DNA from: Candidatus Latescibacterota bacterium
GTDB taxonomy: Bacteria > Latescibacterota > UBA2968
DNA: 64,000 bases
Direction: 5' to 3'
Assembly (NCBI GenBank): GCA_965207885.1
Contig: OZ242311.1
Span: 5,632,001-5,696,000 of the forward strand
Of the stretch, positions 23,198 through 27,700 are shown piece by piece. The translations under genes and the position numbers were made by a program. The notes under the pieces were generated by a model, which was not told where the DNA came from, did no database searches, and saw only the letters and a program-made list of their open reading frames with translations. Position 1 is the stretch's first letter, and every line of letters starts with the position of its first letter.

Positions 23198-23261
23198 AAA
23201 AAAAAGACAGTCAAGGGGAGACCTTGCTCCCGCGGTCCAATAGGTCAGACCTCTCGACTGT
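23198..23261 (-). ncRNA. Candidate small hairpin RNA of about 64 nt
   Basis: TAAAAT -10 box at 23274-23269. The predicted transcript's 5' end ACAGUCGAGAGG pairs with its 3' end CCCCUUGACUGU and is followed by U7. No ORF. Confidence 0.45.
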
Positions 23262-23329: not shown

Positions 23330-23680
23330 TTAACCCTTGATGTAGGTCATAAAACTGAGGATAATAACCGCGACTGCAATGAGCAGAGACAACCATTTTA
23401 TGGTTTGCCCTTCCACGCGATTGATATCGCTTTTTAAATTGGTCTCCACGCGGTTAATATCGTTTTTTAAGGTACTTTCCAAGCGATTAAAGCCCGCGTT
23501 CATCTGGGTGATCAGTTGCTCAAAACGGTTGATCGTCTGATCTTCTATACGGTTAATATCTTTTGTGTTCTGTTCGGTCTGGTCGTCAAGCCCAACCCCA
23601 TTTTTTTCAATATTAATTAACCGCTGGTCTTGTTCGGCCACTTTTTTTTCAAGCCGTGCTATCTTCTCGGAATCTGTCAT
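23330..23680 (-). CDS. Small coiled-coil protein with 11-aa repeats and a C-terminal TM anchor (DUF1640/Bdr-like)
   Basis: LKNDINRVETN/LKSDINRVEGQ repeats, a hydrophobic tail WLSLLIAVAVIILSFM and an AAGGGAAG RBS-like sequence. Confidence 0.7.
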   Translation of the reverse strand: MTDSEKIARLEKKVAEQDQRLINIEKNGVGLDDQTEQNTKDINRIEDQTINRFEQLITQMNAGFNRLESTLKNDINRVETNLKSDINRVEGQTIKWLSLLIAVAVIILSFMTYIKG

Positions 23681-23752
23681 GACAATTCATCTTCCCTTTT
23701 TGTTTTGATACCCCTGATTTGACCACCGATACAGGTTAGACCTCTTGACTAT

Positions 23753-24180
23753 GTCAACTACCACCTGCTGAGCAGGTAGCTTGTCCCTGCCACACCTCCC
23801 GGTGCTTGACCCACCCATTGGAGGCAATGCAGCATATCCGAGCAAGGGCTTAGTGTTAAACCACTCACTGCGTGGCGAGACTTCAGGGCCGTTGACAGCA
23901 GCGGGTTGCGACCGCAGGTTTGGGTGGTCAGTCCCCTAACTGTGCCCCTCGGCTTTGCCAACAACACACCTGCAACCCATACGCCGTTGCTGACAAACCC
24001 GCCTTTCACTAACGTCACAGAAAGGATTTTGTTGCTATCCCACAACCGAAACCGTTTGCTCTCACAAGAGAGTGCCTTTGTGTGGGCCGTGATAGCAATT
24101 ACAATATACTCTCAAAACGGCTTAACGGCAAAGCCGATTATCTCTGACCACGCCCAAAGGACGTGGCTTCTGGAGGAAAA
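23753..24180 (-). mobile_element. Non-autonomous IS200/IS605 (TnpB-type) element, 428 bp, retaining both end hairpins and a probable omegaRNA region
   Basis: On the minus strand the left end has GAAG + hairpin CCACGTCC-TTT-GGGCGTGG, preceded by target TCAC. The right end has CAAG + hairpin ACCTGC-TCA-GCAGGT and ends GTAGTTGAC. No target duplication. The rejoined flanks match a paralogous unit at 23242-23285. Confidence 0.8.
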
Positions 24181-24186
24181 GTGATA

Positions 24187-24215
24187 ATTTTACTCAAAAT
24201 CTACATGCAAATCAA
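24187..24215 (-). promoter_or_regulatory. Putative sigma70 promoter now firing into the IS605-derived element
   Basis: Minus strand TTGATT-17 nt-TAAAAT, with the -10 box ending 6 nt before the element's left end. Confidence 0.5.
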
Positions 24216-24245
24216 GGGCGATTGCGATAAATATTTGGAAATGCA

Positions 24246-24285
24246 AAAAGGAGATACCGCCTGGCATCCCCTTTTTTATTTTTTT
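24246..24285. terminator. Terminator-like hairpin, similar in sequence to 23096-23133
   Basis: AAAAGGAGATACCGCCTGGCATCCCCTTTTTT. Confidence 0.55.
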
Positions 24286-24315
24286 ATGGCATCCTTCGCC
24301 ATATTTAATGCCTTA

Positions 24316-24636
24316 TTAAACCGGTGCTTGCAACACAAGGTTAGGCCGCTTAAGTCGTTCCTCGGCATTCTCAATCGGCCAATTCACAATATCTATTCCC
24401 GCGCCTTTAGCCCAGGCTAACTCACGTTTGACCCATTCTGAACGCCGCGAATTTGGCGAATCAAAAAGAAGTACGCTCGAAGATTTGCTAAGAGCCTGAC
24501 GAATTTGATCATCCATAGGTGCATCCAGATTGAGATGCTCGGAATCAATCCACACATCGCGACCCATACCTGCCAATTGCTTTGTCACGTCATGGACAAC
24601 TTCGGCGTCACGCCAAGAATAACAGATGAATATCAT
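24316..24636 (-). CDS. Stand-alone TIR domain protein (TIR_2)
   Basis: IFICYSWRD...VWID...IRQALSKS...SPNSRRSEWVKREL, with the catalytic Glu retained and an AGGAAG RBS. Confidence 0.88.
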   Translation of the reverse strand: MIFICYSWRDAEVVHDVTKQLAGMGRDVWIDSEHLNLDAPMDDQIRQALSKSSSVLLFDSPNSRRSEWVKRELAWAKGAGIDIVNWPIENAEERLKRPNLVLQAPV

Positions 24637-24743: not shown

Positions 24744-27700
24744 TTATAACACAATCTCCGCATCCGGATCACCAGCGGCGAGGGCGTTCATCCATGCGAG
24801 GCAAAGATCGCGGGAAAGGTAGCGGTCATAATCAGCAGTTTCCTGACGCTCGACAATGGGAAAAGTGGAATAGATGTAGCGAATATCGTCTCGGTCAGTG
24901 ATGCCGTAGAGGTGAAAGAACAAGGCATCGAGTTTGGCGCGGAGGTGGAGGCGACGATTTTCGTCCCATTGGAAGGGTGGGCCTTCGTAGCCGAGATCGC
25001 GGGCAAAGGGAGCCATATCGTGGGCAGTGTAGGTAAGTTCAAGGACAGCGTCGCGGACAATTTCGGCGACGGTCTTGGGGCCGAAGTAGGTGGACTCGTA
25101 GTGGCCGGGCAGAACGACGGGGAGTTGTTCCACAATGTACCAATTGAGCGTCGTTCCCTGCATTTTTTGTCGCGTTACATAGTCAAAAACTATTGAGTTG
25201 AAATTCGCTGTGATGAAACACTGTAATGAGGGGTCGCAATCGGCCGGTAAGAGAACATTGTTTGCATTGACCTCGTATGCAGCATAAGGCCCGATAGCCG
25301 CAATCATCGTTCTTATATTTGTCGGCGCGCCTATTCTCTTATAAGAAAGAACATAATCTCGCTTTAATTCAGTAGCGATATTTTCCACATGGAGCCAATA
25401 TTGCGGATCGGGCAACCAATTCGGATCTTGGTGTTGCTCCAACGTCGCCGATACGGGTTGCGCTGGGCGGTGAAGGTTATCTGGATTGATGACGATATCG
25501 GCGGCTCGGTGGTCATAAGCCTGCACCATCTTGCCCTCGTAAAGTGGGATCCACTCTCCGCTCGGACTGTTGAAGCGATTGCCTCCGATAGGATACGCGC
25601 CTTCCTCATCTTCCAACTCCTCCCGCGTGCGAAACAGGTGCGAGTCGTTGGTCATGTGAAACATCGTTGCGTATCTCACTGGCCAGGCCTTGACTTCATC
25701 TCCAGAAGAACGATCCATCAGCACGGGCAGGCGGCGGTAGATCGCGGTCGTCAATTCCGCGTCTCTGCGAGAGCGAAAAATGGGTGCAGTGCCGGTGTTG
25801 GGATTAACGCTGGCAAAATCCTCTGCCGTCAGAGAGAAGCAGCTATTCTCATCTTCCAATTCCGAAACATCCTGAAGGAAGAAGGCGCAGCGGGCGGAAT
25901 CATCCGTTGGCGATGGACTCGCCACAAACGCGCAGAACTTGAAACGGCTATCCACATCTGGGAAAAATGGCGGCACAGTGTAGCGCGTGCGGCGGTTCTC
26001 AAAATCGTACAACGCCCGCAACCGCCCCTCTGTCGCTACTGAGCGGAAAAACGGCGCAGCTGTCTTGTCAGAGGCAATGCCCGAAGGTGTTAGTAAGCCT
26101 ATTACGCCATCCCCCTTCACCAGTGCCATTGCCCGCTCCACAAACAGCGAATACAGGTTAATGTCTCCACGCGCTAAGAAGGGATAATCGCCCCATTTGC
26201 GCGCTACGCGACCCGCGGACTTAGCGCGTTCATCTGCTCGTTCAAACTCGACAAATAACGGATCGCCAGATTTCTGCAACGCCCCAATCATCCGCTTGCG
26301 GTCTGCCGCACGTTGGGCACTGGCAATTTCGGGCTGTCGCGCAGCAAACCACTCCACCTGTTGCAACTTCATCCTATCCCACGGCGGATTGCCGATCACC
26401 GCGTCAAAGCCGCCACGCGGTGTAGCAGATCGCCAATCTTGCCAAATGCCGGGAAACGCCACCTACCAGTTCAGAAAGCCCTCCTGGGCAATCTGCTCAC
26501 GCGCTTCGGTCAGCAATTCCACAAACCGCTTTGCCCCCGGCACATCCATCCTCACCTCGACTGTACCTGCCGCAATCTCCACAGGATTGCCAAACAGGCT
26601 ATCAAAAAAAGCGCGCAGGGCTATCTTATCCTTCTTCCCCCGCACATCCAACCACTCGAATGCGTGAATCAGCGACAAAAACGCATCCAATGGCTGCGTA
26701 CCCTCCTGCATATCCGCAAACAATTCCGCAGATCGCCCAGCCTCCTCAATCTCTGCATCAGTCAATTCTTCGATCAACTGCATCGCCTGTGCGGCCCCTG
26801 TTGCCCGTTGTATTGGCTCATTCAAAAACAGGGGGCTACCCTCTTCCATGGCCTTATCTATACCCTGACTGACCCAGCATCCAAACAAACTATCGCCACA
26901 CCGCAGATGATGATCCAAAAAACTCAGTGGCGCGCCCGCAGTGAATGAGTGTAGCCACAGCGACACCTTAGCCAGTTCCACTGCCATCGGATTCTTGTCC
27001 ACCCCATAAACACACCGCTTGAGCACCATACGTCGCACAATATGCCGGTCATCGAGTTGTGCCTCATCTATAGCCCACTCGCGCTGTTTGGCATTGGTCA
27101 AGATCGTCTGGCGAATGGCATCAATGCGCTCAGTCAGTGGCGAAACATAGCCCGTGCTATCTACTTCGGCCATTGCTGCAATGACGTGGTCGGAAAGGTA
27201 ATCCACCAAACTGACCAAAAAGTGCCCCGATCCCATTGACGGATCGCAAATTTTCAGATCGAGTAACTTCTCTGCTGGATCGACTTGCGCGAGTGCCTTT
27301 CGCTTAAATCCCTCGCCCACCTTACTGCGTGTAATTTCGTCAACCTGTTTGGCAAAAACATCCATACGTGTCTGCACCAATGGCTCAATCGTCTCCTTGA
27401 GAATCAGGCGCACAAGGGCATCTGGCGTGTAATAACTCCCCGACCCCTTCCGCGCAAACACATTCGGACGCACCACAATCTCGTCCTCTTCGCGCACGAC
27501 CTCGTGTTCGAGCAACCGCTCGTAAATCGACCCCAGTTGCTCAACGCTCAAGTCGCGGTAATTGATATACCGTCCATTCTCAAATGAAAGCGCGTCAATA
27601 ACATCGGCCACCACCTGATCGCCCAGCTTAATCTGAGCCAATAGGGGTGTAATTTCCTGGTTAAATAAACCGCCGTTATACGGTGGCAGACCAATGGAAG

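Follow-up and report, generated by a model that had tools for sequence, protein, structure and literature searches.

A protein-less IS200/IS605 element with a probable TnpB guide RNA in a sponge-associated Candidatus Latescibacterota bacterium

The window, which is the whole stretch of 64,000 nucleotides that was analysed (G000:C1:5632001-5696000), holds a 428-bp element on its minus strand, with the left end at 24180 and the right end at 23753. On this strand the insertion reads TCAC|TTTTCCTCCAGAAG-hairpin ... CAAG-hairpin-TAGTTGAC|ATAGTCAAG, and it lies in the leader of a host gene for a 116-residue protein. The features of the locus are given here in the order in which the minus strand is read.

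24187..24215, minus strand: host promoter-like site TTGATT-17-TAAAAT, ending 6 nt before the element and conserved at the empty sites of four relatives
24181..24184, minus strand: TCAC target or transposon-adjacent motif in host DNA, directly 5' of the left end, found at 12/12 copies with a left end and at the empty sites of four relatives
23753..24180, minus strand: protein-less IS200/IS605 element (PATE), 428 bp
24167..24170, minus strand: left-end DNA guide GAAG at the foot of the left hairpin
24148..24166, minus strand: left subterminal hairpin CCACGTCC-TTT-GGGCGTGG, with GAAG directly before it
24103..24131, minus strand: putative internal sigma70-like promoter TTGCCG-17-TATATT
24052..24079, minus strand: conserved 5' RNA block AAAGGCAC-hairpin-CAAACGG, invariant in 12 copies
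23950..24001, minus strand: long hairpin of the 5' RNA domain (helix 6), with 8 of 16 pairs changed on both sides and pairing kept
23753..23925, minus strand: 3' RNA domain, the probable omegaRNA scaffold, homologous to a tnpB 3' end plus right end (covariance model R1, 201 bits)
23758..23783, minus strand: right-end DNA guide CAAG and right subterminal hairpin (helix 17), with compensatory changes in 3 copies
23753..23756, minus strand: TGAC transposon-encoded cleavage motif, the last 4 bases of the element, within the GTTGAC end of 13/13 copies
23733..23752, minus strand: right flank ATAGTCAAGAGGTCTAACCT, the presumed guide if transcription crosses the right end, its role and length taken from analogy with TnpB
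23330..23680, minus strand: downstream host gene, 116 aa, repeat-rich and weakly XhlA-like (PF10779, 24.5 bits, below the Pfam cut-off)
23242..23261, minus strand: paralogous 17/20 match to the flank, outside the element and inside a DUF3800-VI RNA

The gene for the XhlA-like protein is a member of a multi-copy family, since three congeners (G016, G011, and G018) each contain 10 to 12 partial matches to it. Neighbouring genes on the minus strand encode a small TIR-domain protein (24316-24636) and an Eco57I-type methylase (24744-26462), and because of these two genes the setting resembles a defence island. One RNA-library contig from another strain skips 24240-24619, which is most of the TIR gene.

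The limits of the element are defined by sites that lack it. Of eight loci fetched from relatives, the four in which similarity to the downstream gene and its leader extends as far as the junction were inspected, and all four (in G017, G008, G012, and G005) contain the empty site ...GAGTAAAATTATCAC|ATAGTCAAGAG..., which is the two flanks in the window joined with no base gained or lost. Two RNA-library runs, from two different studies, each contain one contig with the same joint, in which position 23752 is connected to 24181 and 428 bases are skipped. Because the identical joint occurs as DNA in the four relatives, the skip in the RNA contigs corresponds to the empty-site allele, and splicing is ruled out as its origin. 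The insertion is precise, with neither duplication nor deletion of the target, so that the 428-bp limits without target duplication drawn in a first-pass annotation of this DNA prove to be exact. The empty sites also make the insertion in the window younger than the split from those four relatives. A precise absence from RNA could mimic the splicing of IStrons, which, in the passages of the IStron report considered here, are likewise IS605-type elements with a large structured RNA (10.1101/2023.11.20.567912). In contrast to IStrons, the element in the window gave no group I intron match in Rfam searches at E ≤ 1 or 5, and its 428-base skip is also found in DNA.

The distribution of the element was determined in 41 genomes, comprising G000 and 40 relatives, of which 21 (G000 and 20 congeners) form the genus and 16 belong to a sister family. 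Matches occur in 12/41 genomes, all of the same genus (11/20 congeners), and in 0/16 genomes of the sister family. In total, 13 copies were recovered, 428-455 bp long and including one with a truncated 5' end, at different sites in 8 of the 21 genomes of the genus. G000 carries four full copies, 85-88% identical to that of the window by BLAST, and one 72-nt partial match. The first-pass annotation had proposed a search for sister copies with the element's ends, and when the four G000 copies are aligned with their flanks all start after TCAC and end in GTTGAC, while the flanks are unrelated. The junctions predicted from the window copy hold across the family as well, with TCAC 5' of the left end in 12/12 copies with an intact left end and a GTTGAC terminus in 13/13. 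Insertion thus occurs 3' of a fixed tetranucleotide without target duplication, as expected of a PATE. Records in public collections that contain a conserved 34-mer of the element are titled Candidatus Latescibacterota MAGs, and the runs containing the stretch include sponge metatranscriptomes.

Identity between copies is informative about mobility. Between the window copy and each of the other copies recovered, identity is no more than 81-90%, and the source of the window copy therefore lies outside the sample. One subfamily is 98-100% identical over seven copies in five genomes, with two copies in G000 (L002 and L003), two in G017 (L031 and L042), and one each in G010 (L032), G007 (L033), and G005 (L034), all at different sites. 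By comparison, flank identity in an orthologous pair from two other genomes is no higher than 72-92%, a pattern that suggests recent activity or exchange between species.

The element contains no conserved open reading frame. A Pfam search with its three longest internal ORFs was negative even at E ≤ 1, the strand and frame of the longest open frame vary between copies, and a tblastn search of all copies with a related TnpB found no coding remnant (best E 0.1). Together with the hairpin ends, these results bear out the earlier description of the locus as a protein-less IS200/IS605 derivative.

Both ends of the element carry subterminal hairpins that are conserved across copies, and there are no terminal inverted repeats. 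The fold energies of the hairpins are not distinct from those of shuffled sequences (left z -1.5, right z -0.7). At the left end the guide GAAG accompanies the flank TCAC, and at the right end CAAG accompanies the terminal TGAC, so that the foot-of-hairpin guide rule of IS608, which had been invoked from the sequence of this one locus, fits both junctions. The exact scheme for pairing of guide and cleavage motif reportedly comes from work on IS608. IS608 from Helicobacter pylori and ISDra2 from Deinococcus radiodurans have the same hairpin ends and 4-nt foot guides that pair with the cleavage motif; their motifs are TTAC and TTGAT, and unlike the PATE they carry tnpA and tnpB. Across families, the final bases of guide and flank motif covary. 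TCAT accompanies a guide ending in A in two tnpB elements and in the metagenome loci L095, L077, L094, L070, L080, L088, L078, and L097, while TCAC accompanies a guide ending in G in the copies of the window element and in L071, L086, and L068; the exceptions, scored by eye, are L043, L045, and L073. In one metagenome element with the terminus TTAC, the right hairpin is preceded by AAAG. The existence of DNA-guide pairing in the IS200/IS605 family is stated in the passages of Meers et al, 2023 (PMC10055086) used here. Five further sites in G000:C1, near 1875446, 1876559, 1880822, 5323062, and 1895257, contain CCACGTCCTTTGGGCGTGG, the sequence of the left-end hairpin, or close variants of it; these terminator-like sites lie between A- and T-runs beside a repeated sequence family.

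Gene-bearing relatives share these ends. In G000 the TnpB zinc-ribbon family has 24 matches, and there is a single tnpA. Two of the tnpB loci are tnpB-only elements of 1301 bp (C1:6060986-6062286 and 404085-405384) that are 94% identical to each other, and both are preceded by TCAC, like the PATE, and have the terminus GGTGGTTGAC. After the stop codon they have in common with the PATE AAGTCTCGCCA ... GTGGCAGGGACAAGC-hairpin-GGTTGAC, with the last ~130 nt homologous up to the GTTGAC end. They encode a TnpB of 363 aa, absent from the PATE, which matches solved TnpB/Cas12f chains (best E 7.5e-31) and, when aligned to a solved relative, keeps all three RuvC motifs, GVDLG, ALEDL, and ADRNAARNI, which we take to be the catalytic residues. 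With a TCAC flank and a 3' end matched by model R1, these two elements fulfil the expectation of the first-pass annotation that a tnpB with matching ends should exist in the genome or its relatives. As far as they could be checked, the outcomes that it had named as refuting went in its favour. Three relatives contain a second type of tnpB-only element of ~1259 bp (L038, L043, L044, and L045) that shares element positions 1-59 with the PATE (86-93% identity) as well as the right hairpin, the homologous last ~130 nt, and the GTTGAC end, but is preceded by TTCAT rather than TCAC. In G006, another tnpB-only element of the type sharing the left end (L048) has its tnpB split over two frames of 203 and 144 aa and, because of this split, is probably a pseudogene. 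IS200-like tnpA elements in G006 and G001 have the same left hairpin and promoter layout as the PATE. The ends of the PATE are thus held in common with tnpB-only elements, with IS200-like tnpA elements, and, at the right, with the tnpB elements of G000. No cognate transposase is evident in G000, where the sole tnpA belongs to an unrelated element with a different left hairpin.

The homology between the element and tnpB 3' ends was evaluated with R1, a covariance model for which the sole input was the 3'-terminal ~172 nt of nine gene-less copies. Over the 6.2-Mb G000 genome, R1 finds the four gene-less copies at 201-210 bits and also both tnpB 3' ends (C1:6060986-6061116 and 405255-405384) at 42.3 and 41.8 bits (E 1.2e-9 and 1.9e-9), covering model positions 1-173 and stopping exactly at the right ends of the elements. 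The remaining genome matches are two hairpin-only matches at E > 0.1, and the other 22 of the 24 tnpB loci in G000 gave no match. Among fetched tnpB-type loci, 10/10 matched (E 6e-14 to 9e-12). Three of the eight genomes that bear the element (G010, G020, and G012) have no tnpB-type match at E ≤ 1e-4. The match begins ~40 nt within the tnpB reading frame, which is beyond what a transposase site would need. To our knowledge, all TnpB guide RNAs studied so far are encoded at the 3' end of tnpB (Karvelis 2021; Altae-Tran 2021). The R1 region occupies the corresponding position, at the 3' end of the element and abutting its right end, and the likeness to tnpB 3' ends noted from the sequence alone is therefore confirmed by the covariance model. 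The parts common to the PATE and the tnpB ends are a small stem, a long-range GUCAAC/GUUGAC pairing, the stem GUCUCG.../...CAGGGAC, and the right hairpin. The PATE scaffold differs from the tnpB versions by two large inserted stems, with gaps of 27 and 46 compared with 12-14 and 6-8 in alignments of three tnpB elements, and these insertions make the compatibility of the PATE RNA with the resident TnpB uncertain. Neither the element nor its 5' block could be assigned to a family in Rfam scans that covered the element, its sister copies, the related tnpB elements, and 21 metagenome loci, and the label omegaRNA consequently rests on position and homology. The other Rfam matches in these scans were the DUF3800-VI RNA beside the element and two tRNAs; weak matches below the gathering score were taken as noise.

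The RNA predicted from the promoter region to the right end is ~340 nt long, and RNAalifold places 114 pairs in it. Standard pairs form in 97.0% of cells, compared with 92.1% in shuffles, and 20 pairs have changes on both sides, compared with 10.9 ± 2.0 in shuffles (0/500 reach 20) and at most 7 with slid partners, although these covariation controls are inflated because the fold was derived from the same 12 sequences, representing about four lineages. A hairpin at 24002-24025 has a compensatory change that is private to the window copy, and the many G-U pairs fit the element's own strand. The roughly 340-nt RNA fold is thus supported by compensatory changes, and the conserved secondary structure is as expected of an omegaRNA, with the fold and its test sharing the same few lineages. 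The internal promoter-like site is kept in nine copies of the window, L002, and L004 types, and relatives have this TTTGCC...TATATT arrangement ahead of tnpA; the site is also common to the tnpB relatives. The first-pass annotation had the element transcribed from a host -10 box 6 nt upstream. A sigma70-like pattern does stand there, but it is a pattern match only and is not required for transcription, as the element has a promoter-like site of its own.

Public RNA data for the element consist of contigs, which show neither ends nor strand, may include DNA carry-over, and are uninformative for the parts they do not cover. Contig depth over the 3' half of the element reaches 10-79, compared with 3-13 for its neighbours, but sums all copies and organisms and so cannot rank expression. 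One RNA-library contig spans the right end of a sister copy, with strand and ends unreadable and DNA carry-over possible. Contigs of the empty allele extend past the proposed host promoter, to 50 nt or more upstream of where the element inserted, and are neutral on a start from the -10 box.

The 5' domain of the element is an additional structured RNA of ~170 nt. When a profile of this domain was searched with nhmmer against the G000 genome and all fetched loci, only gene-less copies matched, and none of the tnpB and tnpA relatives examined contains the block AAAGGCAC-hairpin-NAAACGG. A search pattern for the block, AAAGGCACTCT-N6-12-GAG-N-AAACGG, which itself fixed most of the conserved letters, recovered 30 metagenome loci (L068-L097). 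Inspection of left ends by eye in 26 of them found a TCAT or TCAC boundary followed by a hairpin, at most ~125 nt upstream of the block, in 15 loci, several of which have a CCTCC stretch between boundary and block. Two metagenome families, each with two diverged copies in different flanks, define gene-less elements of ~320-355 bp. The L071/L086 family ends with ...GTGTCAAG...GAAGTCTCG...CAGAGACAAGC-hairpin-TACTTGAC, the same layout as in the window element. A tblastn search for a same-strand TnpB was negative in all 30 loci, and R1 matched 3/30 at E ≤ 1.2e-4. The inner hairpin of the block has complementary changes, while its flanking letters are fixed, partly by the search pattern. A closing helix around the block showed no excess of pairing in a crude test (mean 4.65 pairs, compared with 4.2 in mismatched controls), and for this reason only the inner hairpin is claimed. 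In the cross-family alignment of the block (A3) the outer helix was out of register and was excluded from the counts.

Considered together, these observations identify the element as a PATE that most likely encodes an omegaRNA used in trans by a TnpB from elsewhere, in agreement with the guide-RNA role for a trans-encoded TnpB first suggested for it; R1 and the two TCAC-flanked tnpB elements in G000 argue for this role. On this model, a Y1 TnpA from elsewhere would move the element by single-strand peel-and-paste, recognizing both subterminal hairpins, with the foot guides GAAG and CAAG choosing the flank motif TCAC and the terminal TGAC. The promoter inherited from tnpA/tnpB relatives would drive transcription of the ~340-nt structured RNA, in which the 3' 170 nt would be the counterpart of the omegaRNA scaffold at tnpB gene ends, and read-through over the right end would append the flank (ATAGTCAAGAGGTCTA...) as the guide. 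After scarless excision by TnpA, the TnpB of the two TCAC-flanked G000 elements, loaded with the PATE RNA, could cleave the emptied donor site (TCAC plus flank), and, with the sister chromosome as partner, recombination would then put the element back, completing homing. Points against full function in G000 are the lack of an evident cognate tnpA, the three of eight host genomes in which R1 matches no tnpB end, the stems inserted into the scaffold, and RNA contigs from which no transcript end can be read.

That a protein-less PATE can carry an omegaRNA used in trans is an idea already published. In the passages of Meers et al, 2023 (PMC10055086) available to this analysis, the homing model is described and PATEs are said to "often encode" omegaRNAs that are used in trans by TnpB from elsewhere. 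The ISGst PATEs of Geobacillus stearothermophilus, as presented in those passages, are likewise protein-less, have both hairpin ends, insert at a short motif without duplication, carry a guide-RNA region beside the right end, and depend on TnpA and TnpB from elsewhere (PMC10055086). The window element differs from them in its host, a sponge-associated Candidatus Latescibacterota, in its length of 428 bp, and, relative to passages of the main text of that paper, in its ~170-nt 5' RNA domain with a block unseen in tnpB relatives. It adds a clean gene-less IS605 example that keeps the TnpB guide RNA, in sponge-associated Latescibacterota, with exact empty sites and a candidate nuclease in the same genome.

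We think it unlikely that the element is instead an inert relic, a dead deletion derivative with a disused RNA that persists because there is no matching transposase to excise it. The presence of the only G000 tnpA in an unrelated element would fit such a relic, as would the lack of a related tnpB end in 3/8 host genomes and the 10-19% divergence of the window copy from all others. However, the fold has been kept by compensatory changes across subfamilies that differ by up to 20%, the promoter hexamers are retained, the subfamily that is 98-100% identical in five genomes points to recent activity, and the window insertion itself postdates the split from the four empty-site relatives. A role for the RNA through its 5' domain, in which it would titrate or control TnpB or TnpA or act on host RNA while the omegaRNA-like part is secondary, seems to us improbable. 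The block is invariant in 12 copies, missing from the examined tnpB and tnpA relatives, and present in gene-less metagenome elements with differing 3' parts (for example, L077/L094 compared with L071/L086), all of which would suit an independent function. Against this, the sequence offers no readable function and no Rfam family, most of the conserved letters were fixed by the search pattern, the closing helix gained nothing over mismatched controls, and the block may be merely the 5' part of the guide RNA of this lineage.

The remaining alternative concerns a site 500 bp away, to which the RNA would send a TnpB, perhaps a nuclease-dead one, as a regulator, or which would have escaped self-cleavage. 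This site, the paralog at 23242-23261, is the best near-match to the guide in the genome, and the 17/20 match reported in the first-pass annotation is correct, as is its lack of TCAC. ISDra2 TnpB is said to require both the flank motif and the ~12 nt proximal to it. The paralog has CAGC upstream in place of TCAC and mismatches at guide positions 2, 7, and 16. A local duplication of ~55 nt, spanning the host promoter and the start of the leader, accounts for the similarity between flank and paralog, the element having landed in one of the two copies. We therefore reject the paralog as a target, whether regulatory or escaped. Each copy has a different guide, as the guide is no more than the flank of that copy, and the nearest TnpB retains its three RuvC motifs, so that nothing at hand bears out the nuclease-dead TnpB regulator that had been put forward. 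TldRs, which in the portions of PMC10705468 considered are nuclease-dead TnpB relatives acting as RNA-guided repressors, use the same TnpB-type guide RNA, but no dead TnpB of this type is evident here, the guide consists of nothing but the insertion flank, and the motif is missing from the proposed target. Taken as a whole, guidance to the paralog is very improbable. The paralogous site forms the 5' part or start of a DUF3800-VI RNA (RF02915) at 23208-23260 on the minus strand (40.2 bits, cut-off 35), the only copy in the genome, and the interrupted unit next to the element has no RF02915 match. A promoter-like site precedes this RNA, a T-run and the terminator of a convergent gene follow it, and no DUF3800 gene lies downstream.

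Beyond the PATE carrying a trans-used omegaRNA, the recurrence of the 5' block in gene-less elements of unrelated metagenomes may be new, and it suggests a widespread lineage of RNA-only elements. We regard as speculative, and rather doubtful, the extended proposal that RNA-only IS200/IS605 elements form an old lineage spread across habitats, which includes the window element, is defined by the 5' block, and did not arise by chance deletions, with an RNA that does more than guide and a tendency to land at start codons. In such a lineage the RNA might capture the TnpB or TnpA that other elements make, or exert control over it, which would be in keeping with conservation of the 5' block better than that of the guide-RNA part. 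The wider lineage would also be adapted to landing at start codons, as ATGA and GTGA are complementary to the target motifs TCAT and TCAC and a ribosome-binding site would come with the left end. If the 5' block is functional, some "remnants" would be self-standing RNA-only transposons that exploit the nucleases and transposases of others, and they could inform how guide RNAs became separate genes en route to CRISPR-type systems.

Abutment of elements to start codons is seen at L038:1560, L043:1560, L044:1500, L048:1500, and L035:1951, and in the metagenome loci L070, L077, L078, L094, and L095. Read on the opposite strand, the flank TTCAT or TCAC at these sites gives ATGAA or GTGA, with a GGAGG from the left end ~4-9 nt upstream of the start. 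The copy in the window is not located at a gene start. Four of five tnpB-only elements adjoin genes recognizable by Pfam, encoding a periplasmic binding protein, a D-Ala-D-Ala ligase, and two sulfatases, with domains that begin at residues 2-28. One gene-less copy (L035, in G020) adjoins the GTG start of a GNAT acetyltransferase. This copy and L004 of G000 occupy the same orthologous site, yet are only 82% identical, and the GNAT frame that starts at their junction is open in G020 (134 aa) and meets a stop after 11 codons in G000.
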